Of a DNA stretch of 64,000 nt, positions 5,247-33,097 are shown in pieces. This stretch comes from a virus, in the IMG/VR virus record IMGVR_UViG_3300031746_000001; one strand, given 5' to 3'. The notes beneath the pieces were generated by a model. It searched no databases. It worked only from the letters and a program-made list of their open reading frames with translations, and was not told the origin of the DNA. A program made the translations under genes and the position numbers. The stretch's first letter is position 1. The number at the start of each line of letters is the position of its first letter.

Positions 5247-5258
5247 TGCTGGCGCCAT
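5247..5258. repeat. Partial copy of the dispersed palindrome (TGCTGGCGCCAT)
   Basis: 11-bp match to the palindrome core, immediately after the response regulator stop. Confidence 0.6.
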
Positions 5259-5662
5259 CATACCACCAGCGTCTTGTCCCCGTTCTCGCTAGAAACGATC
5301 CTACGAACGTCTTCCAGAAACGCATTCGGTTTGAACGCCGGAGTCCCCTTCGTGATGAACTTCCGAATGCCCATTAAAAGGCTTCGCTTCTCGGGCTTGA
5401 GATCGGCCTCCTTTAAGGCCGTCAGAACAATCACCGGCACGTTTCTCATCTCATCGTCCCGCTTCATCTGCTCGAACACTGTGAACCCGTCCATATCCGG
5501 CATCATAAGGTCCAAAACTACGAGCTGTGGTTTGATCTCCCTGATCTTCTGCAATCCCGACACCCCTCCATCCGCCAGAGCTACAGTATACCCGTTATGC
5601 TCGAGGAGGTCTTTCAGCATCTCCCTAACGAACATGTTGTCGTCCACGATTAGGATACTCAT
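5258..5662 (-). CDS. Single-domain response regulator (CheY-like receiver)
   Basis: ILIVDDN, VVLDLMMPDMDG (phospho-Asp), VIVLTA and FITK: all canonical receiver residues present. Confidence 0.92.
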   Translation of the reverse strand: MSILIVDDNMFVREMLKDLLEHNGYTVALADGGVSGLQKIREIKPQLVVLDLMMPDMDGFTVFEQMKRDDEMRNVPVIVLTALKEADLKPEKRSLLMGIRKFITKGTPAFKPNAFLEDVRRIVSSENGDKTLVV

Positions 5663-6102: not shown

Positions 6103-6459
6103 TTATCTCCGAAGGTGCGCTGGTCTGAGTTCCCGGTCAAGCAGGTCCCGGATGAACTCGCTGGCGCTGATGTTCTGTGCTCGAGCAGTTTCAATAAGAA
6201 GTTCTCTCTGCCCCCGGGAAAGCAAGAAGTTCGCCCGCACGGGGATCTTGTTCCCAAACCGCTTCCTCCCCTTTTCGCTCTCGGCGACAAAATCGCAGTA
6301 CTCGCAGAGAAGGACGTACCCAATGGCCTGTCCGTTGGCCTCCGGATCGACCTTGTGCATCACAAAGTTCCGATCTCCCCCGCAGTGCTGGCAGACCTTA
6401 TCCCTAGCGACCACCTCGGCTTTGATCTGGTAAAAAGTCTCCTCATCTACATACGCCAT
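6103..6459 (-). CDS. Degenerate HNH/Zn-finger domain fused to a ribbon-helix-helix DNA-binding domain
   Basis: RDKVCQHCG...MHKV...LLCEYCD (McrA-type HNH scaffold lacking the conserved N and last H); C-terminal NFLLSRGQRELLIETARAQNISASEFIRDLLD is RHH-like. Confidence 0.65.
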   Translation of the reverse strand: MAYVDEETFYQIKAEVVARDKVCQHCGGDRNFVMHKVDPEANGQAIGYVLLCEYCDFVAESEKGRKRFGNKIPVRANFLLSRGQRELLIETARAQNISASEFIRDLLDRELRPAHLRR

Positions 6460-7096: not shown

Positions 7097-7624
7097 TTAC
7101 CCGACGCTGAGCTCCATCCACTCGAAGGCGAGGTCGATGGATTCCACGGAGATCTCTCCGGACGTGGCGTCGAAGTCCGACGCCAGCTTGCAACGGATCG
7201 GGAAGGCCTCGTGAAGCTTGATCCTCCGGTTGGCCGATCCCGTGTTAACCTGCCAAGGGTCCGGATGCTGGGCGTCGCTCTTCCAGTCATCCCGGTGGAA
7301 GTGGAAGATGACCAGATCGGTACGGTAGTCCTGGCCGTTGATCTTCTTCACGATCCAGTCATAGAACCCGTTGTTGCTCTTCACCACGCCCCGCTCGAGG
7401 GAGCAGTCCGTGACCGTCGTGTTCCCGGGGTACTTCCTCTCCATCCTCCAAATGCCTTCCTTGTAGGTCACTGCGTCCGTGTTGAACTCCGGGAAAGAGC
7501 ATGTCCGGAATCCGCCGTGTGGCTCCTTGAAGGCGTTCTTGATATACGCCGGGGCCCCTTCGTCGCAGGTTACGTGGAAGCGATATGCTTGGAGGAAGTC
7601 TGTTACCTGTGCTCTTGCACCCAT
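7097..7624 (-). CDS. Tail tube protein (T4 gp19-like)
   Basis: YRFHV, GGFRTCS, TYKEG, KYPG, LERGV, FYDW, AFPI, DFDATSGEISVESIDLAFE. Confidence 0.92.
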   Translation of the reverse strand: MGARAQVTDFLQAYRFHVTCDEGAPAYIKNAFKEPHGGFRTCSFPEFNTDAVTYKEGIWRMERKYPGNTTVTDCSLERGVVKSNNGFYDWIVKKINGQDYRTDLVIFHFHRDDWKSDAQHPDPWQVNTGSANRRIKLHEAFPIRCKLASDFDATSGEISVESIDLAFEWMELSVG

Positions 7625-7636
7625 GTTTAAGTCCTC

Positions 7637-7813
7637 CTATTGATCTTCACGTTCATCGTCATCATCGGGAGTAGGAACGCGCCGTACCATAACAATCGGA
7701 AACGGTGGAACCCCCATGTGCGGGGCAACGTTCCCTGTCGTCGTGGCGCTCTCTACCGGAGTCCACTCCGCAGGGCCACCGTCCGGCTTCTGTGCGGCGC
7801 GTCCCTTATCCAT
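7637..7813 (-). CDS. 58-aa microprotein resembling the mature N-terminus of the major capsid protein
   Basis: Below the ORF-track cut-off; hand translation MDKGRAAQKPDGGPAEWTPVESATTTGNVAPHMGVPPFPIVMVRRVPTPDDDDEREDQ; SD AGGTG; fills the gap between the sheath relic and the tube gene. Confidence 0.65.
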   Translation of the reverse strand: MDKGRAAQKPDGGPAEWTPVESATTTGNVAPHMGVPPFPIVMVRRVPTPDDDDEREDQ

Positions 7814-7820
7814 GATTCAC

Positions 7821-7862
7821 CTATTGGGCCTTCGTCGTCTTCTGCATGAACTGGAACACGAC
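7821..7862 (-). pseudogene. Displaced original 3' end of the tail sheath gene (VVFQFMQKTTKAQ*)
   Basis: GTC GTG TTC CAG TTC ATG CAG AAG ACG ACG AAG GCC CAA TAG encodes exactly the last 13 aa of the sheath ORF. Confidence 0.93.
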
Positions 7863-8653
7863 TACGCGGCCCACTTGTAGCCGTAAAAAGGTTGAATCTC
7901 ATTTGGACAACAACCAATGTAAGACAGGAAACTATTCGTCGAAGAATCTGAAATTCCTATCACATTGTTTGACTTCTGCCGAGAAGCTTTAAATCCTAAA
8001 TTATGGATTTTCCTAACGAGCAACTCGACATCATCAACAGAAAAACCCTGCGTAGACAATAGTATTTTGCGACGGCGTCCTCCTGGACGGTGAAGCAAGT
8101 ATCCGTCTCCGATATACCACTGTCTTACAACCAGAGGTTTTAAGTCGACATCCAAAGGAACGATCTTTCTTCCGTTGTCGTAAAACATTTTGTGCAATGA
8201 GAGTAGCTCGGGATACCTCAGAGATGCATAGTGATGAACTACACTTATGGCTCCACTTTTCCAGACCGTTCTGGTCTTTTGTATTTTCCCAGATCGATAC
8301 AGTCCGAAGCCTCTGAAGGTCTTGTCCAACCATTGGATATACCCCAGGTGCTTAGAACCACTCTGAAATCTTGCCGATCTCTCATTATCGGAGTGAAGAT
8401 GCCCATCTCCCAGAAGCTCTCCGACCAAAAATTGAATCGCTTCTTCCGAGAGGCTAACGTGTTTCTCTCTTGTAAGATAGATAGCGTCCGCACACGACCT
8501 TCTTGGGATGCCAAACTTCACCATCCACATTTGAATGGCGTTGCTGGTCACCCCAAGATCGACCGCGATTTGATGGAGAGACTTCCTGCCCGATACGTAT
8601 TGGCTCCGAAGCCAATCTTCAGTCATCCATTTATAGAGCGGACGCCGATCCAT
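7862..8653 (-). CDS. Free-standing LAGLIDADG homing endonuclease with N-terminal HTH
   Basis: Motifs FLVGELLGDGHL and VRQWYIGDGYL; N-terminal WLRSQY...SLHQIAVDLG...WMVKFGI HTH; AT-richer than its flanks. Confidence 0.9.
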   Translation of the reverse strand: MDRRPLYKWMTEDWLRSQYVSGRKSLHQIAVDLGVTSNAIQMWMVKFGIPRRSCADAIYLTREKHVSLSEEAIQFLVGELLGDGHLHSDNERSARFQSGSKHLGYIQWLDKTFRGFGLYRSGKIQKTRTVWKSGAISVVHHYASLRYPELLSLHKMFYDNGRKIVPLDVDLKPLVVRQWYIGDGYLLHRPGGRRRKILLSTQGFSVDDVELLVRKIHNLGFKASRQKSNNVIGISDSSTNSFLSYIGCCPNEIQPFYGYKWAA

Positions 8654-8697
8654 TCTTACTGAGCCTTGGTTGTTTTTTGCATAAATTGAAAGACCAC
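7863..8697 (-). mobile_element. Homing-endonuclease cassette (recoded sheath 3' end plus endonuclease gene) inserted in the tail sheath gene
   Basis: Deleting 7863..8697 restores an intact sheath gene (...GAG TTC|GTC GTG TTC CAG...) encoding an identical protein. Confidence 0.88.
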
Positions 8698-10227
8698 GAA
8701 CTCGGCTGGTCTCTGCGGTGCGATCCCCACCTTGATATAGAGGAATCCGGCCTCCACAGCCTCCGATGGGTTGTTGGTCTCGTCGCAGACCACGAAGAAG
8801 GCTTCCTCCGGGGTATTCCCTGCGAAGTAGCCCTCGTTGTAGTGGAACAACAGGAAGCTCTCCATCTGGAGCTTGGCCTTCAGCCGGGTCCCGGCGTCGT
8901 TATTCTCGAACACGATCCAGTGCGTGGCATCGAACGTGCTCTTCTCGAGGTACTGGAAAGTCCGCACGACCGACACGTAACGCCACAGGGTATCGAGGGA
9001 ACCCGTCCGGGCGCCCCAGACACAGCGGCCCGTCTGAGGGGTGCTGATCAGGGGGTTGATCCGTGCGGGGTAAATCAGATCCCGCTCGGCCTTCGTCAGC
9101 GTCCGCTCGAGATCGATGATCCCGGACAATGCCCCATCCGTGATCCCGGCAGGCGCCTTCGCCACGTTCCGGTTGTTGTCCGTCGCGGCATAGACCCCGG
9201 CGACCAGCCCGACGTTCGGGAACAGCTTCGGCCTGCCGAGGTTGAGCGGGTCCTGAATCTTCACCCAGGGATAGTAGACGGCATACCGCTGGGAGTTCTT
9301 GTTGAGGGTCGTCCGCATGAACGTCAGGGAGTCCTGCGGAGAAAGCCCGCTCGGGGTCTGGCAGATGGCGAAGACATACTTGCGGTAGTCGGCGTAGTCG
9401 ATCAACGCCCCCTGCACTGCCGCCGCTGTCGCGCCATCGGTATACCACATCTGGTCCGGAGCCACGAGCATGAACATCTCGTCGATGCTGTTGAGGCTTG
9501 CGAGAGCCCCGGACTGCGATGTCCCCCAGATGGCCTGGGTGGGCGCCGTCCCCTCCGTTCCGCCCGAGCAGGACGTTCCGGAAGGAAGCGCCGCGGGCAC
9601 TCCACCGATCCCCTTCTCCACCCAGATGAAGTTCGACCCGGCGTTGATCACCTCCGGGAAATACTGCGGAGAAGCGGCATCGACGAAGTCGACTGCTGTG
9701 AACGCCTCGACCTGCAAGACCTCCGAGGCTGGGGCGTCCTGGTAGAACACAGCCACGTCATACTTGAGCGGGCTGTAGTCCTCGTTCGGGGTGACCGTGA
9801 TCACGATCCGGTTGCCCCACTTCCCGGGCTCCTTGAGAGTGGTCTTCCCGTACCACTTCCCAGCCCAGATCGTCCACTCGTTGGACGGGGTGACGTGCTT
9901 GGCTGTTATGGCGTCCGCTCCGACCAGCCGGGCGATATAAGCCCGCAGACCGCCCTTGTTGAAGAACATGGCCACCGACTGGGGCAGGTCGAAGAACTCG
10001 TAGACCGTGCCGCCGTCGGTGTAGCGGTTCATTCTGCCGAACTTGGTCTCGTAGTCGGCATAGCCCGTGATGAACAACGGGTACGGAGCGTTGCTGATAA
10101 GAGCGTCGACCGGGCCCCGCTCAGCGATACCAGGGAACACGCAGGTGGACGTCCCGACACCAGCTATCGCCCTGGCGCCTTCGCTCTTTTCCTGGATATA
10201 GATTCCAGGCGACAGATATTCGGGCAT
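8656..10227 (-). CDS. Tail sheath protein (T4 gp18/FI-like)
   Basis: MPEYLSPGIYIQE, FFNKGG, YAVYYPW, KAPAG, INPL, VWGART, WRYVSV, WIVFENND, FFVVCD, PAEFVVF. Confidence 0.97.
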   Translation of the reverse strand: MPEYLSPGIYIQEKSEGARAIAGVGTSTCVFPGIAERGPVDALISNAPYPLFITGYADYETKFGRMNRYTDGGTVYEFFDLPQSVAMFFNKGGLRAYIARLVGADAITAKHVTPSNEWTIWAGKWYGKTTLKEPGKWGNRIVITVTPNEDYSPLKYDVAVFYQDAPASEVLQVEAFTAVDFVDAASPQYFPEVINAGSNFIWVEKGIGGVPAALPSGTSCSGGTEGTAPTQAIWGTSQSGALASLNSIDEMFMLVAPDQMWYTDGATAAAVQGALIDYADYRKYVFAICQTPSGLSPQDSLTFMRTTLNKNSQRYAVYYPWVKIQDPLNLGRPKLFPNVGLVAGVYAATDNNRNVAKAPAGITDGALSGIIDLERTLTKAERDLIYPARINPLISTPQTGRCVWGARTGSLDTLWRYVSVVRTFQYLEKSTFDATHWIVFENNDAGTRLKAKLQMESFLLFHYNEGYFAGNTPEEAFFVVCDETNNPSEAVEAGFLYIKVGIAPQRPAEFVVFQFMQKTTKAQ

Positions 10228-12576: not shown

Positions 12577-12888
12577 CTACCACTGATCGGTGATATCGGT
12601 AAGGGCGACGATCATAACGCTGGCTCTCCGGACGGCGTCCCGGAAGTTATTCGCTATCCGGGTTACCCGCTTGACATCCACAAGGCCCCGGCCTTTCACC
12701 TGTTCGTTGTAGAGATCATTGGCGAGCTTCTTGATCTCGTCCGTGATCTTCACGAGCTTCGAGACATTCTCTGCAATCTCGGCCTGTAGCTCTTCGGGAT
12801 CCCTGCTCCGGAGCCCCGCTTCCCCGGGAGAGACGGCAGACTTCAAGGTCTCCTCTGTCAATGCGACCGACTTAAGCAGGTCGTTCAT
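12577..12888 (-). CDS. Small protein with cargo-type leader (MNDLLKSVALTEETLKS|AV)
   Basis: Start reassigned to ATG 12888 (SD GAGGTG); leader similar to array members. Confidence 0.65.
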   Translation of the reverse strand: MNDLLKSVALTEETLKSAVSPGEAGLRSRDPEELQAEIAENVSKLVKITDEIKKLANDLYNEQVKGRGLVDVKRVTRIANNFRDAVRRASVMIVALTDITDQW

Positions 12889-13205
12889 TTGGTCACCTCG
12901 TTGAAAATGTCCATGAGGCCCTTCACCTGCCCGGCAAGGGTGATCCCGGACTTCATGCCCTTCCGGTGAAGCCGAGACTCCTTCTCCTTGCGGGACCTCG
13001 AGCGCATGGTGAGGCCGAGGTCGGACTTCACGACCCTCCGGGTAGCCCTGCGGGCGTCCCTGCTGAACGGGGACACAACCCTTCCTGACTGCACCGCGAC
13101 CTTCCGGTAAGGGACCCGCTTCCACTGCTTGAGATGGGTCTTCTCTCCGGAGACGACCGCAGACGTCAACGCCTGCACTCCACTCAACAAGACTTTCATG
13201 CTCAT
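12885..13205 (-). CDS. Small Arg/Lys-rich protein with cargo-type leader (MKVLLSGVQALTS|AV)
   Basis: Highly basic; overlapping start/stop with neighbours. Confidence 0.6.
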   Translation of the reverse strand: MSMKVLLSGVQALTSAVVSGEKTHLKQWKRVPYRKVAVQSGRVVSPFSRDARRATRRVVKSDLGLTMRSRSRKEKESRLHRKGMKSGITLAGQVKGLMDIFNEVTK

Positions 13206-13684
13206 GGTATTTTCTGCTCCCCTGGCGCATCGGCATGCCGTTTAAGTTCACAAGTCCAAAACATGTGGTCACCCGTCCCCCAGTAGAACTCCGTCGGTGT
13301 GACCTTCACAATATCATACTTCGTAAATAAGGGCTGTGGTGTATTCCAAACTAACAGGATATCTCCCCGCTTCGGAAGAGGCCAGCTATTGTCCTCAATG
13401 CTCTTCCGGGGCAGGTGGGCGAGCGCATCGATCTCCCCGATCCCTCCAACCTCGTTCTCCTCCCACGACCAGGTCGGCACTTCAAGATTCCCGATGATGT
13501 CGTAGGGTCCGGCAAAGACGAAGTCGGACTCCGTCGTGGGCTCCTGATACAGCGGGTCCTGAATCGAGGCCGCCCGATTGATCGAATAGAAGGAGATATG
13601 AAACCCGCTGAGGGCGGGAACCTCCTGGGCGACACCGTCGAACATCCTCCGATCACGTGGATTTTCAAAGAATCTATCGGCCAT
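13202..13684 (-). CDS. Neck/head-closure protein (T4 gp14-like)
   Basis: ISFYSI...DPLYQE...PKRGDIL pattern; start MADRFF at 13684. Confidence 0.65.
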   Translation of the reverse strand: MADRFFENPRDRRMFDGVAQEVPALSGFHISFYSINRAASIQDPLYQEPTTESDFVFAGPYDIIGNLEVPTWSWEENEVGGIGEIDALAHLPRKSIEDNSWPLPKRGDILLVWNTPQPLFTKYDIVKVTPTEFYWGTGDHMFWTCELKRHADAPGEQKIP

Positions 13685-14264
13685 GTGAAAGCAGTTCCAG
13701 GATGTGCTCGAGGTGGCTGTCAATCCCCACAGTGAAGTAAGGGCTGTCGATCGGCTTCAGGTGAACGGGGTCATCGTAAGACTGCTCCTTATCCTGCCGG
13801 ATGGTCTCCCACTCCCCCGTCCCTTGAGCCTTCTCAACCTGCACGAGATAGGCGACATCGTTCAGCATCCCGAGGACCCGATTGAACTGCTCCGTGGAGG
13901 TCTCATCGGAGAGCTCCCGGGCGATCTCCAACATATCCTTCTTCGGAACGTAGTAGCGGTATCGCTTCTTGTCTGCCCGCTGAACTTCAAAGAACGGATC
14001 GCCCGAGTCGGGCTCGATCAAACGGACGCTGAACGAATCCTCGGTCTTGAGGTGATCCCCGACTTCCTTCTGCCCACTCGCCCGTTTCTTGAGGGTCTCA
14101 ATTCCCTTCGCCTTGTCGAACCGGAAATCATCGAGAAAGCTCTTAGTGAACCGCTGGCTGGGAAACCAGTATTGAGTGAGCCCGCCGTCTTTGTCCTGCA
14201 GGACGACGAACCAGCCCTTGCTGTCCGACCCGACTTCGTGAAGAGTGAGCCCTTCGGGATCCAC
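13674..14264 (-). CDS. Hypothetical protein
   Basis: 196-aa co-oriented ORF. Confidence 0.6.
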   Translation of the reverse strand: MDPEGLTLHEVGSDSKGWFVVLQDKDGGLTQYWFPSQRFTKSFLDDFRFDKAKGIETLKKRASGQKEVGDHLKTEDSFSVRLIEPDSGDPFFEVQRADKKRYRYYVPKKDMLEIARELSDETSTEQFNRVLGMLNDVAYLVQVEKAQGTGEWETIRQDKEQSYDDPVHLKPIDSPYFTVGIDSHLEHILELLSHGR

Positions 14265-14777
14265 TCATTTCCCCCGCTTCTCGTAGGATTCGTAGGAGAT
14301 CGCTTCCAGGTTGGAATTCCCCCGAATGAACCGCTCGGCCTCAAAGCCAGTCATGATAACGGCGTCCTCGGGATCCTCCGTATAGTTACCCGGCCCCTTC
14401 GGGGTAAGCCACAGGCCCCGCCCGATCAGCCGAACCATATACTCATCCTGACCACGAAGGCGATTCCCAAAGGCATCCCTCGTCACGAGGTTCTCGAGCT
14501 TCTCATCATCCGTCACCCTCATGGCGTGGGGACGCTGTTTGATCGTGTCCAGAACCCCGAGCGTGTCGTCCACGATCTTCCTGAGATTGTCCAACCCTAA
14601 TCCTCCTCCCCCTCTACGAAACCGAACCGTGAAACCGATCCCTTGTAGATCATCATCTGCGGGCGTGTGTCCTGCTTCATCTGCCTTGTCGACAAACCGA
14701 ACAGCAGGGGCGGGGAGCTTGGCCGGGGTTTCTAGGAGCTCTCGAAGGGAGGTGAGAGCTGGAGCAATGGAACCCAT
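14265..14777 (-). CDS. Hypothetical protein
   Basis: Co-oriented ORF; probable start MGSIAPAL. Confidence 0.6.
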   Translation of the reverse strand: MGSIAPALTSLRELLETPAKLPAPAVRFVDKADEAGHTPADDDLQGIGFTVRFRRGGGGLGLDNLRKIVDDTLGVLDTIKQRPHAMRVTDDEKLENLVTRDAFGNRLRGQDEYMVRLIGRGLWLTPKGPGNYTEDPEDAVIMTGFEAERFIRGNSNLEAISYESYEKRGK

Positions 14778-14804
14778 GAAGAAGACCCCCCGCCCCAAAA
14801 CTGT

Positions 14805-15149
14805 TTAGGTGATCGTAAGGTAGAAGCCCGTCATGACCAGGATGGCGATCACGAAGGACATCGTACCGGCGTAGGCATCGAGCCCCACCGTCGCGATATC
14901 ACCCTGAGCCGCGATGACGGCGTCCAGGTACGTCTTGAGGGCGCCCGTCACGGTGGCGTCGATCGCCACCACGAGAGCGGCCATGTTCGCCACGGCAACC
15001 GTGGTGTCCGGAGCCAGGTACTGCTTGACAGCCGGAACGAGATCGCCGAGACGGAAGTCCAGCGTCTCCTGCCCCACGTGGACGGCCTGGTAGGCTCCGC
15101 CTGGGGCGTATTTGCCACCGATCTGACCCTGCACTACTGTGAACGTCAT
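14805..15149 (-). CDS. Putative small virion structural/decoration protein
   Basis: Strong SD AGGAGG, strongly biased codons, Ala/Val/Thr-rich. Confidence 0.5.
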   Translation of the reverse strand: MTFTVVQGQIGGKYAPGGAYQAVHVGQETLDFRLGDLVPAVKQYLAPDTTVAVANMAALVVAIDATVTGALKTYLDAVIAAQGDIATVGLDAYAGTMSFVIAILVMTGFYLTIT

Positions 15150-15173
15150 TTCATCCTCCTTTTGGTTAAGTGA

Positions 15174-15887
15174 CTACCCCGTTAAAAACGGGATTTGTGA
15201 AGCCCTACTCAGGCTATCCTCTTCGGTCTCCTTGAGTTCTTCAGAGGATTCTTCCAACAACCTGTCGGCGTCCATCTCGACTGGACCGCCTGGCCCAGGG
15301 TACTGCTTATACTTCCCCCTGATCCTTCCGAGCATCTGCTTACATCGCGCTGTCACCCTCCGAGCGTAGAGATCAATATCTGCGGCCGCTTGAAGGTCCT
15401 CGATCTTCGTTGCCAGGATCCAGGCGTCGTAAAACAACGTGCCGATCGTCTGTGGGAGCTTCCAGGTCCGCAGAATCCTGGTCCCGGGGTCATACTCCCA
15501 TCCGGTGCCTCCGGCGATCCGCCCGAGCGTCTCGGAGTGCTGAAGGTAGAGAACGAGAGCGGAAAACCGATGCCCCAACCTCCGGTAGTCGTGCCCGACC
15601 TGCCAGAGAACGAATCCCGGGAGATCGAACGAGAACTGACCGAGGTAATCCAAACCCGCATAGACGTTGCTCACCCCGATCGTCCCACTCGGCAGGGTAT
15701 GCTCCTCATACGCCCAGTTCCCGACCGGGATTTCCAGAGACAGAACCTCCGATCCCAGCCTCGTGTTGAACCACCGCAGGGCATCCCTCAAAGCCGCCTG
15801 CCAGTGTTCCTCCTCGAGCTCGACGGCGACCTTCGTCCCGAACCCGAGCTTGGCGAATACTTCCTGCTTGAGCTCGGCCTCGGTCAT
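15174..15887 (-). CDS. Neck/head-tail adaptor (T4 gp13-like)
   Basis: KLG...VELEEEH, ALRWF, CKQMLGRIRGKY, PGPGGPVEMDAD, PFLTG. Confidence 0.82.
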   Translation of the reverse strand: MTEAELKQEVFAKLGFGTKVAVELEEEHWQAALRDALRWFNTRLGSEVLSLEIPVGNWAYEEHTLPSGTIGVSNVYAGLDYLGQFSFDLPGFVLWQVGHDYRRLGHRFSALVLYLQHSETLGRIAGGTGWEYDPGTRILRTWKLPQTIGTLFYDAWILATKIEDLQAAADIDLYARRVTARCKQMLGRIRGKYKQYPGPGGPVEMDADRLLEESSEELKETEEDSLSRASQIPFLTG

Positions 15888-15889
15888 CT

Positions 15890-15905
15890 CTGCTGGCGCC
15901 AGCGG
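15890..15905. repeat. Dispersed palindrome copy (CTGCTGGCGCCAGCGG)
   Basis: Lies in the 21-nt gap between genes 15174-15887 and 15909-16565. Confidence 0.8.
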
Positions 15906-15908
15906 AGG

Positions 15909-16565
15909 TTAAACATACGCCGTACCCCGCCCGCCTTTCTTGCTGTGTGTCTTGGAGGCCACCTGGACGGGCTTCGTCCCGGGTTTGTCCGGCTTGACCG
16001 GGGAACCCGCCTTCTGACCGGGTTTGGGAGGCACGGGAGCCTCTTTCTTACCCCCCTGGGCTTCACCAGGGGCTTCTGGTGGGGTTTTGGCCCCCGACCC
16101 GGCCTCCGACCCCTCCGTCCCGGCCTTCCCCTCCTTTGGGGGCTTTCCCCCCTCAGCCTTCGGCGCCTCCGGAGCATGCGTGTGGAGTGGCGTTTCCACG
16201 GCCTCGGTCATCGCTGACTGTAGGCCATCCCCGACCCCTAAAACGACTTCCTGCGGAGGTTCGGACGCAGGCGACATGGCGGGAGCCGGAGTTACCGGAG
16301 GCGCAGGCTGAGGTATAGGCGACGCCCCAGAGGAGCCTATCCCTTCGACAGGTCCAGGAACCGGCTCGTCGGATGCCGGAACCTGTTGCACAGGAGGTGG
16401 AGGTGCCGACAAGGGATTGCCGGAGGCGTCGCATTCTATCAAACGGTCATCCGGAGGGATCGCATAGATCGCCCAGTGGTCGCCTTCGATGACCATGCCG
16501 GAGGAGAACATATTCCCCCCGCAGGAGATCTGGCCGTATTTTGAATTCTTCTTCCAGTATCTCAT
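15909..16565 (-). CDS. Protein with a small N-terminal domain and a long Pro/Ala/Glu/Lys low-complexity tail
   Basis: Composition seen directly. Confidence 0.6.
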   Translation of the reverse strand: MRYWKKNSKYGQISCGGNMFSSGMVIEGDHWAIYAIPPDDRLIECDASGNPLSAPPPPVQQVPASDEPVPGPVEGIGSSGASPIPQPAPPVTPAPAMSPASEPPQEVVLGVGDGLQSAMTEAVETPLHTHAPEAPKAEGGKPPKEGKAGTEGSEAGSGAKTPPEAPGEAQGGKKEAPVPPKPGQKAGSPVKPDKPGTKPVQVASKTHSKKGGRGTAYV

Positions 16566-16568
16566 CCC

Positions 16569-16886
16569 CTAAACCCTTTCTATCACGTCGGGAAGAATGT
16601 CTTTCACGGCATCGGCAATCGCCTGGATGTCGGATCGTGGAATCTTCTCCGCGACCCGATCCCCGATCCGTCTCGACTTTCCACGGAGCTCGTCCACGCC
16701 CTCGAGATGATAGCCGATCCCCGAGGCGATCCATATCTTCACGGAGTCGGGAGAGGCGAGCCACCGCAAGATAGAGTTAATATCCACGGCACTCTGGACC
16801 GGATTCTCCTTCACGGGATACCCCAGAAACCTTGCCCCTCCGACCATCTGATCGATCGAAGTTACTGCCAAGAGAAGTTCATTCAT
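16569..16886 (-). CDS. Leader-array protein (MNELLLAVTSIDQMVGGAR)
   Basis: SD AGGAGG; shared leader. Confidence 0.7.
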   Translation of the reverse strand: MNELLLAVTSIDQMVGGARFLGYPVKENPVQSAVDINSILRWLASPDSVKIWIASGIGYHLEGVDELRGKSRRIGDRVAEKIPRSDIQAIADAVKDILPDVIERV

Positions 16887-16894
16887 AAGTCCTC

Positions 16895-17170
16895 CTATGC
16901 CGTCATTGAGGCCCGAACAAGGTCCAGAAGCAGGGACTGGTTATTCGCCAGATCATGGAGCTTCTGCCGAGTCCCTTCCAGGTACTGCACGTCTATAAGT
17001 GCTACCAACCGATGGGATAATTTCACGCTCACCTTCTGATCAACCCCGGCGAACCTGAGATCGTTGGAAATGCCTCCCGAAAGCATCCCCACGATGTTGT
17101 GAAAGTCTATTCCCCGAAGGTAGTGCTCGACCTTCTGAACAACCCTTGCTTCCTCCGGTGTCATGTCCAT
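16895..17170 (-). CDS. Hypothetical protein within the array (no clear leader)
   Basis: Co-oriented ORF with SD. Confidence 0.6.
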   Translation of the reverse strand: MDMTPEEARVVQKVEHYLRGIDFHNIVGMLSGGISNDLRFAGVDQKVSVKLSHRLVALIDVQYLEGTRQKLHDLANNQSLLLDLVRASMTA

Positions 17171-17179
17171 AGCACCCTC

Positions 17180-17587
17180 TCATTGGGATTTGCTCCGAAA
17201 CAGCTTCTTGATCTGAGCGTCGGTGTAGTGCTTGACCTTATACATCGCGAGGTCATCGAGGGCCCCGTTGATCGAATGGTAGTTCTCGTTCTCGAGGATC
17301 TCCCACACCCGCTCCGAAAGGGAGCTAGGCTTAACCCCGAGCCTCCTAACGGCAACCTCTACGTTCTCCTTATAACCGTCCCAGTCCCCCCAGGGCCCCG
17401 AGGCGTCGTCCCAACCCTTGCTCCGCCAGATGTCCTCGTCGATCTTCATGAGCTCGGTCGCCAGCTTCTTGTCCCGCTGTGGCGTATCCTTCAGCCGGGC
17501 GTAAAACGGAGACTCCCCGAGGTCGTCCGTTGTGCGGACGCTTAGGAGCCCAGCAAGGGACCGAATCGCTTCAAGCAGGGTTCTCAT
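17180..17587 (-). CDS. Leader-array protein (MRTLLEAIRSLAGLLS|VR)
   Basis: Shared leader. Confidence 0.7.
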   Translation of the reverse strand: MRTLLEAIRSLAGLLSVRTTDDLGESPFYARLKDTPQRDKKLATELMKIDEDIWRSKGWDDASGPWGDWDGYKENVEVAVRRLGVKPSSLSERVWEILENENYHSINGALDDLAMYKVKHYTDAQIKKLFRSKSQ

Positions 17588-17590
17588 GGT

Positions 17591-18031
17591 CTACATGAAG
17601 AACTTCGTGAACTCGGGATCCTCGAGGGCGTTCGTATAGGCTCCCTCTTCCTCCGAGATCCGGCGAACTTCCTTCGGGTTGATCGCCTGCTTCTTGATGA
17701 TCTGGATGGCCTGCTCTTTGGTCATGTTCTCGTCTTCCAGCATGTCACCGATGTGCCTGGCATCTCTGAAGTCCCCGTAGAGGACGATCGCCAGGTCAGA
17801 GTAACCCTTCTGCCGGAGGGCTTCGATCCACGCATCGGCGAGCTCTGGGTTCGTGGCGAGGGCCGAGTGACCCCAGAAGCCGAACCCTCCCGAGATGTAA
17901 CGGCCAGCCCGCAGGAACTCCTTCGTGGAGAGCTTGTTCTTGATGTCCCAGATCGACCTCTCCCGAGCGTCAAAGAGCTCCTCCCCGCACATCGAAGCCA
18001 GAAGCTGAACGGCTCGAGTTTCCTTTTTCAT
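17591..18031 (-). CDS. Leader-array protein, CGE subtype (AVQLLASMCGE)
   Basis: Shares AVxxLxx(L/M)CGE with the genes at 19814 and 20692. Confidence 0.7.
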   Translation of the reverse strand: MKKETRAVQLLASMCGEELFDARERSIWDIKNKLSTKEFLRAGRYISGGFGFWGHSALATNPELADAWIEALRQKGYSDLAIVLYGDFRDARHIGDMLEDENMTKEQAIQIIKKQAINPKEVRRISEEEGAYTNALEDPEFTKFFM

Positions 18032-18032
18032 G

Positions 18033-19178
18033 TCAGTCCTCCTTGTGGTGCGGTTTGTCGCCCCGGCTTTTCATCCAGTAGGAGTTATGCGAGAAAACCC
18101 CTGCGGATATGGCGAACGTATGAATTCCCTTAACAGCGACATCATACATCGGAATGATGGTATCGAGAAAATCGATCTTAACTATAAAGTGGTTCTGAGC
18201 CTCTCGAGCTTCCCGGGCCCTTCGCTTTCCTTCGCCGACCTTTTTCCCATGATCCGAACCATAGTTTCTCCGAAGATTTGCCTGCCTAATCTTCTCTATC
18301 GCATCCGCAGACTGAGAAGTTCCGAACGGACGACCGCCAAGCAAACCACTCCTGTAAGACTGATCCCTGAGAAGTCCCGACCGACGTTCTCGCTCTTCGG
18401 GAGACATTTCGGCCCATTGCTTCAACGTAGTCTCTTTGGACTTTTTCGTATGCAACCTTCTGAATTCCGGGTCCGATCTCCACTTTTTATCCCACGCTAA
18501 CCGCATCGCCTGAACCTTGTCCTTTCCATGATGCTTATTATGGAAATCCCGCAACATCCAAACTAAGTTTTCAGGGCGGTTATCTCGAGGGTCTTCATTG
18601 AGATGGTGCCCGACATGCTCGGCGGAGGGACAGCCTAAACCCATCTCCCGCATTACAGCCCAATGCGTAAGGCCATAGCACCCGAGGCCGGGATGGTAAA
18701 CCATCTCATGCCCCACAATTCCACGAGCCATTCTTGATTTTGACACACTGCTTGTCGTCCTGAATGGCATCAGAGAATCATCTACGTTCAGAGCCTTCGT
18801 TTCGACGAAAGACCCATCACGTTTGACCCAGCGGTGCTCCGGAGAACAGGTTAGAATCTCACCGTTATCAAGCGCAATTTCCACGGCAGGACGCACCCCG
18901 ACATACTTTACCCGGGCAAGACCGGGAACGACTATCCCTGTCGGGTCAACGGAGTAAAGCCAGAACTCGGCATTAGCCTCTGCAAGTGCATGCAGTGACC
19001 TGATTTTTCCGTCCAAACATGGAACCTCCGTATCACCTCCTAGACACAAAGCGAAGGGGTTGTCGATGTCCTTGTGCTTCTTCATCGCCCGGACGGTCCC
19101 GCCCCAGCCCGGGGGAGACACGTTCACGAGCTTGAAGCTCTGCGAGAGATCGACGACGGCGGTCAATAATTCCTTCAT
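18033..19178 (-). CDS. Leader-array microprotein (60 aa after splicing) interrupted by an intein
   Basis: N-extein MKELLTAVVDLSQSFKLVNVSPPGWGGTVRAMKKHKDIDNPFAL (44 aa); C-extein SYWMKSRGDKPHHKED (16 aa). Confidence 0.85.
   Translation of the reverse strand: MKELLTAVVDLSQSFKLVNVSPPGWGGTVRAMKKHKDIDNPFALCLGGDTEVPCLDGKIRSLHALAEANAEFWLYSVDPTGIVVPGLARVKYVGVRPAVEIALDNGEILTCSPEHRWVKRDGSFVETKALNVDDSLMPFRTTSSVSKSRMARGIVGHEMVYHPGLGCYGLTHWAVMREMGLGCPSAEHVGHHLNEDPRDNRPENLVWMLRDFHNKHHGKDKVQAMRLAWDKKWRSDPEFRRLHTKKSKETTLKQWAEMSPEERERRSGLLRDQSYRSGLLGGRPFGTSQSADAIEKIRQANLRRNYGSDHGKKVGEGKRRAREAREAQNHFIVKIDFLDTIIPMYDVAVKGIHTFAISAGVFSHNSYWMKSRGDKPHHKED
18084..19046 (-). mobile_element. Intein (321 aa) with HNH homing endonuclease and NUMOD3-like repeats
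   Basis: Block A CLGGDT, block B CSPEHRW, block F MYDVAVKGIHTF, block G VFSHN|S; HNH motif HHLNEDPRDNRPENL...HNKHH. Confidence 0.93.
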
Positions 19179-19187
19179 GATATCCTC

Positions 19188-19817
19188 CTACGCGGCCTTC
19201 AGCCCAACCTGCCGGGCGTATTCTTTCCAGGTATCCCCGTCCACCAGAATGTCGGCCACATCGTTGTTGGCAATCATGTCCCCGTACTCGTCCTGCAGGG
19301 TCCCGAGCATCTCTTCCACGATCCCCTGGATGAACTCCGTCAGGTCGGCCCCGCCGAGGAACGGAGGGACGCAGGAGTAGCCCCGGGTCGAGAAGGCGAT
19401 GCTCACAGGAGAACGACGATCGTTCAGTGCTTTCTGGACCTCTGGATCGTTCGGGTCTGCCCCGGCCTCCTTGAGAAAGAGCCTGACGTCCTTGACCACT
19501 GCGTTCTTGAGCACGAGGCGCTCGGGCCTGAAGTAGTAGTCCGGGCTGTCTCCCTCGGGATCCTTCCAGCTCATCTTCGGGCTCACCCAGAGGACATCCT
19601 CACATTGGATCCCGTAATCCGACAGGCGGCTCCGGAAGTGCGCCTTCAGGTTGCGATCGAAGTCCCCGTAGACCCGATCTCTGCGGAAGAGCTCCATCAT
19701 CATGAACTGCGTGGACAGCTCGAGGTCCTGAAAATCCTTCTCCCGGTTGGGATCGAGATAGAGCCCCAGGAAGATCCCGCTGGTTAAGGTATTCACAGCT
19801 TCGAGCAAGTCCCTCAC
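19188..19817 (-). CDS. Leader-array protein (MRDLLEAVNTLTS|GI)
   Basis: Shared leader. Confidence 0.7.
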   Translation of the reverse strand: MRDLLEAVNTLTSGIFLGLYLDPNREKDFQDLELSTQFMMMELFRRDRVYGDFDRNLKAHFRSRLSDYGIQCEDVLWVSPKMSWKDPEGDSPDYYFRPERLVLKNAVVKDVRLFLKEAGADPNDPEVQKALNDRRSPVSIAFSTRGYSCVPPFLGGADLTEFIQGIVEEMLGTLQDEYGDMIANNDVADILVDGDTWKEYARQVGLKAA

Positions 19818-20185
19818 GGCTCCCTTAAGCCAAAGGGGTCTTCCTCTGCGAGATCACGGACGACCTCCTGCAATTTATCCGTAATCAATCCCATGCCCTT
19901 CTGGATGTCGGAATTGTCCCGCAGGTACTGAAAGAGCACGTCCACGACCTGTGCAACGACTTTGGAATCTCCGGAATGCCCGACCGCATCCTTGATGAAC
20001 TTCAGCACGTACTCGGACAGCTTCTCGGGGTCGCCCAAGACTCCCCCGTTCGCCACCTGAAGGGCAGTCTTCTGAAGGACAGCGGGATCCACGCCTTTGT
20101 AGCCCAAGACCCTGGTCCCTGTGGACAAGATCGGTTCCCCGCACAACTCGGCAAGGATTAAAACGGCTTTATTCTCTTGGCTCAT
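19814..20185 (-). CDS. Leader-array protein, CGE subtype (AVLILAELCGE)
   Basis: Start reassigned to MSQENK at 20185. Confidence 0.65.
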   Translation of the reverse strand: MSQENKAVLILAELCGEPILSTGTRVLGYKGVDPAVLQKTALQVANGGVLGDPEKLSEYVLKFIKDAVGHSGDSKVVAQVVDVLFQYLRDNSDIQKGMGLITDKLQEVVRDLAEEDPFGLREP

Positions 20186-20186
20186 G

Positions 20187-20684: not shown

Positions 20685-20691
20685 GGTCATC

Positions 20692-21995: not shown

Positions 21996-22002
21996 GATCC
22001 TC

Positions 22003-23808: not shown

Positions 23809-23809
23809 C

Positions 23810-24659: not shown

Positions 24660-24660
24660 C

Positions 24661-26010: not shown

Positions 26011-26019
26011 GTGGCCTCC

Positions 26020-26598: not shown

Positions 26599-28044
26599 TT
26601 ACATGTTGAGGACTGTGACGAGGGCGTAGTACTCGGTATAGATGAGCTTCGTGGCATACCGAGTACGGAGACCCTTCTTCAACCCGAAGTCCGTCGGGTC
26701 CATGAACGTCGGGGTCATCTGGATCGGGATATACGGGGCGTAAACGTAGCCCGCATCCATCCAGTAATCCCCCTTCAGGCCCAGCAGAACCTTGGTCGAT
26801 GTGAAGTAGGGGTCTACGTAGACCGCCCACTTGGACTGCAGAGTCCCGGCGAAGTAGATCCCGGGTCTCCGAGGCGGGGTCACTGGGACGCCCGTCTCCG
26901 GGACGGAACCGACCGCTGGCCGGAACAGCTGGTGCGTGGCGAACTGGTCGAACAGGGCCGCCACGTCGGGCGAGGTCACGATCCAGTTCGCGGGCGAACG
27001 GAGCGTCCGCTTGTGGATCGCATTCGACGCCGTCGACAAGACGGTTAGGATCGACCGGATGTGATCGATGTCCGAGATGCCGGACGGCACGGTGCGGTCC
27101 CAGTTATACTTCACGACCGCATCGACGTGGGTGTAGATGTCGTTGATGATCTCGCGGTCGACTTCCAAGCCGATCTGGCTGGAAACCCCGGCCACGAGTT
27201 CCGACTCCACGTCGATTCCGTGCAGGGCCCGCAGGTCTTCTGCGGACTCCGTGGACCAGACGGCCTTGAGCTTGCGGCTCCGCGCCCGAACCTCGGCGAT
27301 CTCCACGGCCACGTCCACTTCCGGGACCGCCGTGTTGAGCTCGCTGTTGTATTCGTAGAACGCGGTGACCACGCCCACCTTCTGCGAGGTCAAAGACGGA
27401 ATGACCATGGCGAAGGCGCCGTTGGTGTAATTGATCGACCCCGAGGCTCCGACTGCGTCACCGACCAGGGTGCCCGACCCGTTGGCGTCGGTGTAGCGGA
27501 TCGTCCGGGGGGACGTCTCGTTGGTCACGACGGTGATGATCGGCCCTGCGGCTCCGGCGTCGGTCGCCTTCTTCACAGGGGTGAAATCCAGCGAAGCGGA
27601 GTAGGTCAGGTCCCCGCCGCCTCCGGCTGGGGTCGTCCCGACTGCCTCGTTGCTGATCGTCTCCGACGAGTAATACATGTCGAAGTTTGCGATCATCTCC
27701 GTGCCCTTCGTGGTGGCGCCCTTCTCGGTCCCGTATTTGACCTTGAAGTAGGACACGGCGCCCACGGGGGCATTCATGGGCTGGACGGACACAATCTCGT
27801 TGGAGATCAGGAACGGCCAGACCCTCCGAACCACCGGGAACACGTGCTTCGTGTAGTAGCCCGCATCTCCGGTCGTCGTGCTCCCGGCGTTAGCCAGGTA
27901 GATCAAGTGGTCCATCTCGTTCTCGAGGAGCCGGGACACGCAGAACTTCCGGTACGGCTCCTTGATCGAGCGAGTGAGACGGTGCCACTTGCTCATCAAA
28001 GCCTGGGCTTCGGGAGTTTTCCAGGCTGTCAGCAACTGTTCCAT
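26599..28044 (-). CDS. Major capsid protein (T4 gp23-like)
   Basis: LLEN, PVVRRV, EIVSVQPM, ARSRKLKAVWS.E..EDL, EVDREII, ANWIVTSP, VYVDPY, AGYVYAPYIP, GLRTRYA. Confidence 0.97.
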   Translation of the reverse strand: MEQLLTAWKTPEAQALMSKWHRLTRSIKEPYRKFCVSRLLENEMDHLIYLANAGSTTTGDAGYYTKHVFPVVRRVWPFLISNEIVSVQPMNAPVGAVSYFKVKYGTEKGATTKGTEMIANFDMYYSSETISNEAVGTTPAGGGGDLTYSASLDFTPVKKATDAGAAGPIITVVTNETSPRTIRYTDANGSGTLVGDAVGASGSINYTNGAFAMVIPSLTSQKVGVVTAFYEYNSELNTAVPEVDVAVEIAEVRARSRKLKAVWSTESAEDLRALHGIDVESELVAGVSSQIGLEVDREIINDIYTHVDAVVKYNWDRTVPSGISDIDHIRSILTVLSTASNAIHKRTLRSPANWIVTSPDVAALFDQFATHQLFRPAVGSVPETGVPVTPPRRPGIYFAGTLQSKWAVYVDPYFTSTKVLLGLKGDYWMDAGYVYAPYIPIQMTPTFMDPTDFGLKKGLRTRYATKLIYTEYYALVTVLNM

Positions 28045-28105: not shown

Positions 28106-29629
28106 TTACTCTTCGCCCGACAATTGGGCGATTCTTTCCATCGACATCCCCGTGAGCTGTTCGATTGCCGTCCCCCGCCCGGTTCCCCGGGATTCGAGAA
28201 CGACGTCCTCGTTCAGCAACGTGGCTCCTCTCCGCATGCCCTGTTGGACACGCTGAAGAAGGGCCCCGGGGGAGTCCGGGGAACGGTCCACCCACTCCCT
28301 TAACTGCACGGCTGTGGAGATGTCGCCGGATTCGACGAGCATCCCCAGTTTGTTTCGAAGGTTGATTACGTCAGACCGATGAGAGATCTGCCTCTCAGCT
28401 TCCAGCATTAACTGCACCCTCTTCGCACGAGCAAGGGCAGACGTGGCGCTTTCCTTCTCGATGGCCACCTGGTTCCTGAGAACATCCACCTCCCCACGAG
28501 TGATCTTCAAGTCCTTCGTCAGCTTGGCCACCTCGGACGTAAGCTCGGCTTCCTTCTCGTCGGCCTCCCCCACGCCCCGCTTGATGACCTCGAGCTGTTC
28601 CTGGGCTTTCGCGATCACGCCTTTGGCCTGCTCCAACTCGGCACTCTTGCCCGTGAGCTCGACCTCCAGCTTTTTCTTGTCATCGGCGGCTCCGGCCTTC
28701 TCCTTCTCGTCCACCTCGTCGGTCTTCTCGATCCCCATCGCTTCGGCGACCTGCTGGGCGGTCTTGGTCAGCTCGTTGATATCAGCGAATCTCCCCAGGT
28801 CACCCAGGGCGGCCATGAGAGCCCCGGCCTTCGGGCTCCGGCCATATTGCTGATTCAGGAAGAGCTTGAATCCCAGGTTCTTATACTCGTCGCGATAGGT
28901 GTTCGCGAGCTTGGTCAGGCGATCGACTTCTGCCTTCAGCGTGGCAACAGCTTTGTCCTTATCCGCTTCCAGCACGACCGCCTCCCCGACAGGCTTGATT
29001 TGAGTCAGCTTAACGCTTGCCGCGACCTCCTCGTGGAGCATCTCTTTCAGCTTGCCCGTAATCTCCTCGACCAGCTTTTTCCGAAGTTCGTCATTTCCCA
29101 TCAACATCTCCTCGTTAAAGATGATCTCTTCTGGCCAGGTAGAATCAGCGGGCTCGGAAACTGCATCAAACGTCAGGAGCCTGAAATCGTCGTTCACGTT
29201 AAATGTGTCACCCTCCTGCGCCAACGACCCGAATCCCCGGCTCGAGATCCCCACCTTCGCACCCGACTTAAGGATGCTCCGGAGGTTGTTCCCTCGCTCG
29301 GTATCCAGGACTTCGGCCTCTCCGATGACCTTCCCGCCGTCACAGCGGAGGTCCGTAATGATGTGGCTGACCTCGTTCAGGCGGGTCCGGCCATCGGCAG
29401 GGTGGTCCAGGCATCCGAAGAGCTTCCGATCTTTCATCAACGGTCTTAGTCTCGAGATCTCACGCTCCCAGAGCGCATGGGGGTACACTCGGTTGTTCTT
29501 GTTCGGATTGTCCGCCAGAGCGAACTCCCCTCGCATGATCACCTTGCGAGCCCCACCGCCAGGCGCATCCTGCTCGACTAACTGCAAGCCTGGGGCGTCG
29601 TAGACTGTGGTTAAGAGTAACTTCTCCAT
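28106..29629 (-). CDS. Prohead maturation protease (T4 gp21-like) fused to a coiled-coil scaffold
   Basis: NKNNRVYP, GCLDHP, VSHII, GISSRGFGS, TFDAVSEP; C-terminal ~330 aa coiled coil. Confidence 0.93.
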   Translation of the reverse strand: MEKLLLTTVYDAPGLQLVEQDAPGGGARKVIMRGEFALADNPNKNNRVYPHALWEREISRLRPLMKDRKLFGCLDHPADGRTRLNEVSHIITDLRCDGGKVIGEAEVLDTERGNNLRSILKSGAKVGISSRGFGSLAQEGDTFNVNDDFRLLTFDAVSEPADSTWPEEIIFNEEMLMGNDELRKKLVEEITGKLKEMLHEEVAASVKLTQIKPVGEAVVLEADKDKAVATLKAEVDRLTKLANTYRDEYKNLGFKLFLNQQYGRSPKAGALMAALGDLGRFADINELTKTAQQVAEAMGIEKTDEVDEKEKAGAADDKKKLEVELTGKSAELEQAKGVIAKAQEQLEVIKRGVGEADEKEAELTSEVAKLTKDLKITRGEVDVLRNQVAIEKESATSALARAKRVQLMLEAERQISHRSDVINLRNKLGMLVESGDISTAVQLREWVDRSPDSPGALLQRVQQGMRRGATLLNEDVVLESRGTGRGTAIEQLTGMSMERIAQLSGEE

Positions 29630-31450: not shown

Positions 31451-33097
31451 TCATTTGCGACCCCCCTTCTTCATGTATTTACCATAGCCCCGCACGGTCT
31501 CCCTGATCTCAAGCATGAGAGGCTTCAGTATCTTGACGGATTGCTGTAGCTCCTTGTTTTCAAGCAACGACCGGCGCATCTTGTTCTCAAGAATGAGGTT
31601 CTGGCGGTTCGTCCCGTGAGGACCGAGAATGCGCTCGGACTGCTTCTGGAAGTCGACCTCCGTCTGCGGGGGAGTCTTGCTCTTCCACTCCTCCGGAGGA
31701 ACCTCACCGGTGGCTCCGCCTTTGGCCACAGAGTAGTCCCTGATCTCCTCGTCGCTGAAGTGGAAGATGTTCTTAAGGAGCCACTCCATTGAGACATACT
31801 CCCTCATCTGCGAGGCGACGTTCGCCCGGACGGAGAGCACGTCCATGTAGTTCTTCTCGAACACGAGCGACGGGACGGACATGTAGACGTCGAACTCGGC
31901 GGTCTTATCCGGGTCGATCCCCCGGGCGGCCAGGTGGACCTTGCTCATGTGCTTGAAGCCTTCCCTGAGCGATCGCTGGATCCGCAGGATCGTGCGGGCA
32001 AACCGGACGTCCTCCGAGGCCAGGATGTTCTTCGCCGACACATCTTCCTCGAACCCCAAATAGCTCTTAGGAATCTTGATAGCGGCGTAGAGCTTGTCCT
32101 TGAAGTACTCGAGGTCGTCGATGTTGTTCCACTCTAACCCACCGATCGACTCGATCTCCGTTGCCTTCTTTCCGTCCCGGGTCGCCACGAAGAAGTCCTC
32201 GTCTGAGGCAAGCGGGTTATAGCGTGTATCGAGCTTCCCGGTATTGGGGTTCACGAACTTCTTCTTCCGGAACGTGGCGACCTGGCGCTGGATGTAAGAC
32301 TCGGCCTCGGCGGGCGACCTCTTCCCGACATCAATATAGAAGGCAAACCGGGCGGGCGCTCGGGTAAGGCGGTAGATAAGAGCGGCGTCTTCCATGAGCA
32401 CCAGACGCCTCCATATCCAGCGGGCCGGATCGAGAACGCCTCTCCCATAAATATCCCAGCGTTGGCGTCCTCCGAGCTTGAAGTGGGCGCACTGCCAGTC
32501 CTCAAAGACGATCTCCCCGTCTCCCATCGTCTGCTTGCCTTCAACCTTGGCTCTGAACTCCTTCTCCGTCATCGGGGTGAACTGCCCCCGGATGTTCTGG
32601 ATGTACCCGATCACTTCGCCCCGCAGGTCGATTACGCACCGCATGGTTGGCTGGGCGAGGTAAGATATGCCGCAAAGCCCCTCGTGTTCCTTAAGGAGAA
32701 GCTCGTGATACTCGTTTCCATACATACAGATGCCCCGGGAGATCGACCAGAGGTGGTCGTCGAGATAGAGCTTCTTGAAAACATCGTTCAGCTCACCAGC
32801 GAGATTCTCATCGTCGGACTCCACCCAGACCGACTCACCGGAAATTATGTTCGGTTGGCTGGATTCGTCAGCGTATATGTCCAGGGCGGAGGAGAGGTCA
32901 GGATAGTCATTCATATCTTCGTAGTCCATATACCTTCCTACGAGATCCTCCTCCATCTTGAGAATAGTCGAGAGATCATACCCGCCCATCGCAAGGGCAG
33001 ATAGGAAGTCCCACATTTTGATAAGCTTTTCCCGAGCAGTCGGGACCTGCTTACCCTTCTCGCCTGCCCACCACTTCTTTAGGAAATCAAAGGCCAT
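31451..33097 (-). CDS. Portal protein (T4 gp20-like)
   Basis: ALDIYADE, LMEDAALIYRLTRAPARFAFYIDVG, EDFF, IDDLEYF, IPKSYL, EDVRFARTI. Confidence 0.97.
   Translation of the reverse strand: MAFDFLKKWWAGEKGKQVPTAREKLIKMWDFLSALAMGGYDLSTILKMEEDLVGRYMDYEDMNDYPDLSSALDIYADESSQPNIISGESVWVESDDENLAGELNDVFKKLYLDDHLWSISRGICMYGNEYHELLLKEHEGLCGISYLAQPTMRCVIDLRGEVIGYIQNIRGQFTPMTEKEFRAKVEGKQTMGDGEIVFEDWQCAHFKLGGRQRWDIYGRGVLDPARWIWRRLVLMEDAALIYRLTRAPARFAFYIDVGKRSPAEAESYIQRQVATFRKKKFVNPNTGKLDTRYNPLASDEDFFVATRDGKKATEIESIGGLEWNNIDDLEYFKDKLYAAIKIPKSYLGFEEDVSAKNILASEDVRFARTILRIQRSLREGFKHMSKVHLAARGIDPDKTAEFDVYMSVPSLVFEKNYMDVLSVRANVASQMREYVSMEWLLKNIFHFSDEEIRDYSVAKGGATGEVPPEEWKSKTPPQTEVDFQKQSERILGPHGTNRQNLILENKMRRSLLENKELQQSVKILKPLMLEIRETVRGYGKYMKKGGRK

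Follow-up and report, generated by a model that had tools for sequence, protein, structure and literature searches.

A small gene in the tail operon of an uncultured T4-like phage encodes a very probable stand-alone homologue of the major capsid protein N-arm

Genome setting

The window, that is, the whole 64,000-nucleotide stretch of IMG/VR record IMGVR_UViG_3300031746_000001, comes from an uncultured myophage with a T4-type head, a tail sheath, and two gp19-like tube genes (Table 1). Its closest relative is G006, a complete 160-kb IMG/VR genome whose major capsid protein (MCP) is 91% identical. G006 has a single PF07068 gene, which indicates that no separate vertex protein is encoded.

A 58-codon open reading frame (ORF) is placed on the minus strand between a LAGLIDADG endonuclease gene and tube 1. 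It directly follows the sheath gene in G006 and in a distant 1.1-kb contig, and only in the present genome does the endonuclease insertion separate the two. The endonuclease gene (7821-8697, minus) has invaded the 3' end of the sheath gene, so that the sheath now terminates in a recoded copy, with the 14 original codons left stranded at 7821-7862. This invasion is absent in G006.

Several other genes of the window were recorded. A single-domain gene similar to response-regulator receivers (5258-5662, minus) lies in the tail module after a membrane-protein gene, and is conserved in G006. A Cys-rich or ribbon-helix-helix-like gene (6103-6459, minus) follows tube 2, and a similar gene follows the mimic in another genome, G002. 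A leader-bearing gene (18033-19178, minus) is apparently interrupted by an intein with an HNH-like insert, as judged from the CL...HN ends in the translation. ORFs resembling glycosyltransferases, methyltransferases, and radical-SAM proteins by eye (57504-61937, minus) are possibly involved in DNA or surface modification.

Table 1. Features of the window that bear on the 58-codon gene.
Feature	Position	Strand	Basis or remark
58-aa gene, very probable stand-alone homologue of the MCP N-arm	7637..7813	minus	selection, homologue, and profile tests
Residues 1-22, putative propeptide ending at V-E-S|A	7748..7813	minus	predicted cleavage
Residues 23-47, N-arm-like segment matching MCP residues 53-77	7673..7747	minus
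Residues 48-58, charged (acidic) tail, variable	7640..7672	minus
SD-like AGGTGA, overlapping the original sheath stop codon	7817..7822	minus	identical in relative G006
gp23-type MCP	26599..28044	minus	PF07068 E 1e-68; T4 gp23 in PDB E 3e-25
MCP residues 50-77, putative maturation site L-A-N|A and N-arm, template of the mimic	27814..27897	minus
Prohead protease (Peptidase S77), presumed to be the processing enzyme; its long C-terminal part is scaffold-like	28106..29629	minus
T4-type portal protein; its vertex is the proposed binding place	31451..33097	minus	PF07230 E 4e-71
Tail sheath; immediately precedes the ORF in relatives without the endonuclease	8656..10227	minus
LAGLIDADG endonuclease insertion and displaced original sheath 3' end	7821..8653	minus
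Tail tube 1, translationally coupled downstream neighbour of the ORF	7097..7624	minus

The 58-codon ORF as a gene

The initial annotation proposed an unlisted 58-aa ORF at 7637-7813. The ORF was borne out on the minus strand, backed by the SD-like AGGTGA and by selection. Its stop codon overlaps the SD of tube 1, and this overlap is identical in G006. No sigma-70 promoter was found near the ORF.

The conservation and dN/dS analysis suggested with the annotation gave a positive result. An orthologue was found in IMG/VR 3300035660_000001, and codons 1-47 of the two differ by 14 synonymous and 7 non-synonymous codon differences, with 17 of 25 changes at third positions (Fisher p 3e-5). The dN/dS value is 0.157 over about codons 1-47, and that of the tube gene is 0.142. 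Purifying selection is concentrated on residues 14-47 (dN/dS 0.054), while residues 2-13 vary freely; within the putative propeptide, Trp17 is conserved. This concentration counts in favour of reading the product as a head protein mimicking the N-arm. A reading-frame artefact is ruled out by the synonymous excess, and a by-product of the endonuclease insertion is ruled out by the presence of the gene in relatives without the endonuclease. There is practically no doubt that the 58-codon ORF is a real gene.

Similarity to the N-arm of the major capsid protein

The initial annotation aligned the peptide by eye with the mature N-terminal arm of the MCP. The motifs TTTG, FP[IV], and VRRV are indeed common to the ORF and MCP residues 53-77, but direct Smith-Waterman alignment of the ORF with its own MCP N-arm is gapped, with a score of only 27, and is not significant. 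The best local match of the ORF in the MCP is residues 153-168 with score 39, and several chance six-frame segments score as well. The z-score against its own MCP is 3.3, while the best, 6.7, is against the MCP of another phage. The ORF carries a Pro-rich insertion of 3 residues.

The connection is made through relatives. An exhaustive search of 1.84 billion proteins revealed one homologue, P0005 (E 7.4e-4, 44% identity), which sits in the matching position between sheath and tube; a metagenome scan returned only the contig of P0005. P0005 scores 52 against residues 55-78 of the MCP of the present phage, a score reached by 0 of 3000 shuffles, and near-perfectly matches the last helix of the MCP arm. 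The MCP N-arm is also its top non-self match among 1222 six-frame segments of the window. A profile of three sequences searched against five other phage genomes gave one match, the MCP N-arm of the 178-kb phage G003 (E 0.0028). Profile-to-profile comparison with hhalign aligned ORF residues 22-48 with MCP residues 52-79 (E 2.1e-5, probability 77%). Profiles built without the three sequences, from 13 family members or about 119 MCP arms, detected P0005 (E 4.7e-5) but did not detect the ORF of the window.

Mimicry of the MCP N-arm therefore stands through P0005 and the profiles and fails for the ORF and its own MCP compared pairwise; likewise, the similarity is significant against shuffled controls for P0005 and the MCP, and not for the direct comparison. 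The 58-aa protein is very probably homologous to the MCP N-arm, with a transitive link via its relatives, and it is the most drifted member, having moved further from its own MCP than the other family members have from theirs.

Only about 25 residues correspond to MCP residues 53-77, and an HK97-fold body matching PF07068 is absent from the ORF. Searches of Pfam, PHROG, and PDB with the ORF gave no match, including no PHROG family at E 0.1, and a word-indexed protein search gave no candidate; the ESM Atlas search returned only matches at 0.84, which have the status of leads. The AlphaFold model of the MCP is poor (pLDDT 59; residues 54-93 below 50). Complex prediction with the arm-less MCP, the mature MCP, and peptide 23-58 scored 0.00, which gives no answer and was weighed neither way.

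The family in related IMG/VR phages

Among 26 related loci, which were fetched with the sheath, 21 have an ORF of 60-110 aa downstream of tube 2; many of these 21 rows built the profile, while L017, L025, and L026 are independent matches and L028 is a weak one. Of the five family-negative loci, three are incomplete and one has the gene further away. The family pattern consists of a conserved Trp, a Glu, then Thr-Thr-x-x-Val-Gly, Pro, and often Arg-Arg, and it echoes the arm of the MCP of each phage. The window ORF shows the features of the family: small size, location in the sheath-tube module, Trp, Thr-rich start, Val-Gly, Pro, and Arg-Arg. Its position is before tube 1, whereas that of the family relatives is after tube 2. 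The acidic tail pointed out in the initial annotation is present in the ORF (residues 50-58), but it is not a family character, as most members end in Lys-rich tails. In two loci (L006 11355-11609 and L010 13210-13428), the Thr-Thr-x-Gly start of the arm is duplicated in tandem.

Analogous copies in T4 and other cultured phages

The idea of an arm mimic extends beyond this ORF to T4 gp61.1 and the cyanophage protein T4-GC426. The alignment of T4 gp61.1 with gp23 covers residues 57-93 of the latter, spans the gp21 site, and has score 82 (0 of 3000 shuffles), and the corresponding PDB match has E 0.0067; about 1480 phage records match gp61.1. The gp23 arm of P-SSM4 has a second match at the start of PSSM4_163, a T4-GC426 protein (E 5.9e-9). 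Genome-wide searches with the arm of each phage rank the arm-copy ORF first in T4, KVP40, phiM12, and SP-15; the KVP40 match is above all 60 shuffles, that of phiM12 has p about 0.05, and that of SP-15 is not significant. Only sub-significant candidates were obtained by such searches in ViI, SP-15, and G003. No significant copy was found by own-arm searches of CP220 and S-PM2, and the candidate in S-PM2 has no match to the MCP of that phage.

A profile search revealed a copy in RM378 (E 6e-6), directly before the prohead protease gene. In L117 (5323-6189, minus), the RM378 protein is an acidic protein of 289 aa with an internal arm copy after a Glu site.

The copies score best against the MCP of their own phage (z 17 in T4, 20 in KVP40, 22 in P-SSM4, 7.7 in phiM12, and 7.3 in SP-15), although these scores are not phylogenetically independent contrasts. 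The window ORF lacks such tracking of its own MCP. Third-codon identity between copy and MCP gene is 13/37 and 8/26 (31-35%) in T4 and P-SSM4. Such low identity indicates that selection at the protein level maintains the likeness. A recent duplication from the MCP gene is ruled out in these two phages, as third positions are saturated.

The arm-copy gene is immediately preceded by a DUF7207 gene in P-SSM4, S-PM2, and phiM12, and the two are one gene apart in ViI, which suggests that they constitute a functional pair. Loci with both genes are L077 3578-4476, L137 19445-20000, and L148 5132-6534.

T4 gp61.1 (NP_049649; PHROG 1823), whose long forms are in PHROG 2086 (for example, KVP40 13248-13721), is like the window ORF a small stand-alone gene in which a protease site precedes a copy of the N-terminus of mature gp23 and the tail is charged; it has no assigned function. 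It has features of its own: an internal-protein-type leader, an I-x-E site, a copy of the N-fist (gp23 57-93), a location beside the primase gene, and early expression. In the window ORF, the site is V-x-S, a shorter arm is copied through its last helix, the gene is in the tail operon, and there is no PHROG match; it fails HMM matching to the gp61.1 family (PHROG 1823/2086) at E 0.1. The gp61.1-like combination of MCP cleavage site and mature N-terminus is present via the homologues and weak for the ORF alone.

The N-terminus of T4-GC426 (PSSM4_163; PHROG 696) also copies the arm of its own gp23. In contrast to the window ORF, it is 179 aa long, has an extra domain, and follows the DUF7207 gene near the primase gene. 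T4-GC426 was detected in purified S-SM1 virions, with 17 counts versus 18 for the portal (PMC3037559 Table S8). With about 150 extra residues, it could be present in virions for reasons other than the arm.

Literature searches found no description of the function of gp61.1 or of genes mimicking the N-arm, and databases label class members as hypothetical or "major head protein". T4 61.1 is classed as early (PMC9697503). It scored "Not Fit", a non-essential result, in CRISPRi-ART, as did the essential gene 61 (primase) (PMC11879866). No gp61.1 chain was found in PDB, which holds several T4 head structures. As judged from these comparisons, the window ORF would work like gp61.1 and T4-GC426 while being outside their HMM families, and similar genes across T4-like phages probably encode an overlooked minor head component.

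The maturation site

Glu is present in the maturation region of 111 of the 112 closest MCPs, and the MCP of the present phage (27889-27897, minus) is the only one without it, which suggests that the specificity of the S77 protease has changed. The site in the MCP of G006 is L-A-S|A. In the 58-aa ORF, the site is P-V-E-S-A, and the I/L-x-E of the T4 gp21 type is absent. The Glu site has apparently been lost jointly in the MCP and the mimic of this lineage.

Hydrophobic-x-Glu is enriched upstream of the MCP in T4, KVP40, phiM12, G003, and L194 (z 3.2-5.3). The top residue in the scaffold-region genes here and in G006 is instead Ser (hydrophobic-x-Ser z 2.7 and 2.8), with Glu weak. Within residues 10-26, hydrophobic-x-(S/N)-small occurs in 8 of 12 leader-bearing head-cluster genes against 1.8 expected, and Glu in 1, for a pattern that was defined post hoc and is unenriched in one window subset (z 0.9). 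The putative (L/V)-x-(S/N)|A-type site of ORF and MCP, which had been proposed from the two sequences, gained independent statistical support in head proteins, and this enrichment supports putative cuts at S22|A23 in the ORF and N52|A53 in the MCP. An alternative cut in the propeptide, E21|S22, has some plausibility, since this position lines up with the Glu of the nearest MCPs (P0007).

Between the MCP and the neck (12577-26427, minus) lie about 20 small genes that have an M-x-x-L-L leader in common; the leader frequently terminates in hydrophobic-x-(S/N)-small, and the gene products are candidates for protease-processed head cargo. The 58-aa ORF lacks the M-x-x-L-L leader found in the 12 head-cluster genes. 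T4 internal proteins IPI-III and core peptides gp67 and gp68, substrates of gp21, resemble the 58-aa protein in being packaged in the prohead and trimmed by the protease, which for the ORF product is the probable course with S77. They have a leader and cut site only, with no copy of the MCP arm, whereas the ORF has no leader. From its sequence, the ORF product is neither an MCP nor a leader-bearing internal protein.

Proposed role and alternative explanations

The 58-aa protein is probably associated with the head and, with slightly less confidence, is trimmed by the protease. It would be a minor head protein and a paralogue, standing by itself, of the maturation site and N-arm of the MCP; its place between sheath and tube suggests synthesis together with the late structural proteins. 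It would enter the prohead, where the S77 protease may trim it at S22|A23, as the MCP at N52|A53. The freed residues 23-47 would bind sites normally taken by an MCP N-arm; the likeliest are the five left partnerless where the portal replaces a capsomer, and the bound peptide would stabilise this symmetry-mismatched vertex. That a protease-trimmed minor head peptide binds N-arm sites in this way, most likely those vacant at the portal, is a tentative proposal, and its specific filling of the portal-vertex sites is equally tentative.

MCP residue 55 aligns with T4 gp23 residue 82, by which the copied segment corresponds to the end of the N-fist and the N-arm. The N-terminal region of gp23 is inside the prohead and moves outward on expansion, making intra- and inter-capsomer contacts (PMC9546572). 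The N-fists of the five gp23* subunits facing the portal are disordered for want of a partner (PMC7136217). In P74-26, the N-arm of an extra protein is used at the portal aperture (PMC12407722). This protein, PVP, is similar in its proposed role, with an arm replacing contacts lost with the missing penton; it differs in being globular, in not being described as an MCP paralogue, and in having a solved location, where the location proposed here is a prediction. The disordered T4 N-fists, the P74-26 arm, the RM378 copy before the protease gene, and T4-GC426 in virions count for the portal-vertex reading. The weak match to the MCP of the same phage, the Pro-rich insertion, and the lack of the M-x-x-L-L leader count against it, as do the lack of a gp61.1 chain in PDB, the early class and "Not Fit" result of T4 61.1, and the negative results for CP220 and S-PM2. 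The portal-vertex role is tentatively ranked first, followed by a modulator of prohead assembly, a protease decoy or a drifted tail role, a defence decoy, and chance.

As a modulator of prohead assembly, the uncleaved protein would offer an extra N-arm to the scaffold core or the portal at nucleation, tune head size or fidelity, and then be cut and lost. The gp23 N-terminal region probably contacts the scaffold, and the head-length mutations A66D, A94V, and G97S are located there (PMC9546572). Both the arm and the cleavage site are preserved in the mimic, which also suits this role, but T4-GC426 in mature virions fits retention better, and the modulator is a rather unlikely explanation.

The protein may instead be a competitive substrate or timer of the prohead protease, the likeness being an extended protease-recognition sequence. 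The cleavage-site region is the part common to all lineages, MCP and mimic of the present phage have apparently both exchanged Glu for Ser/Asn at the site, and the RM378 copy adjoins the protease gene. However, the likeness continues past the cut for about 25 residues, well outside the short P4-P1' motifs known from mapping of proteases of this kind (PMC10052503), and other head proteins have the short motif only. This explanation is improbable.

The window ORF could also have drifted from its origin in the mimic family and now have a tail or neck role, or be a spacer coupling sheath and tube translation, with a vestigial N-arm likeness. Its location between sheath and tube, where SD and stop signals of adjacent genes overlap, its weak own-MCP match, and its escape from the independent profiles agree with this. 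Selection is nevertheless strongest on the arm-like residues, and the syntenic P0005 retains the near-perfect match to the last helix of the arm, which makes vestigial likeness improbable as well.

Capsid proteins are known triggers of defence systems. A decoy for host factors recognising the capsid precursor, either capsid-sensing defences or chaperones, would be in keeping with this and with T4 61.1 being early and dispensable in the laboratory host. The late-operon position in the present phage, the virion detection in S-SM1, and conservation over very different hosts that follows the MCP and not the host make it quite improbable. Chance resemblance, in which the small gene is real but has no relation to the MCP arm, would fit the non-significant pairwise score, but it is largely refuted and scarcely credible since three separate profile or homologue tests reach one MCP segment.

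Significance

This locus adds a lineage that has its arm copy in the tail operon, with the copy reaching through the last helix of the arm, and a loss of the Glu site that apparently affected MCP and mimic together. The apparent change from Glu to Ser/Asn predicts the mature N-termini of the head proteins of this phage. The arm-copy class explains why short genes are recurrently mis-annotated as "major head protein", as in PHROG 696 and Citrobacter phage Miller; the PHROG 696 label treats T4-GC426 as an MCP, which it is not.

A broader view is that phages of the T4 superfamily as a rule have a gene for a "ghost subunit", a separate copy of the MCP N-arm that is matured by the head protease, kept in step with the MCP of the same phage, and fills the empty arm sites around the portal, and that MCP, mimic, and head cargo of the present lineage switched together from Glu- to Ser/Asn-directed maturation. 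This view is speculative and unlikely to hold as a whole. It bears on two questions of head architecture, namely what keeps a 12-fold portal in place in a 5-fold vertex and what controls the size of large heads. The arm copy is kept in T4 and in distant relatives, so a specific and cheap test is available in a model phage. If true, the "ghost subunit" would be an unrecognised structural component even of T4, in the form of gp61.1.
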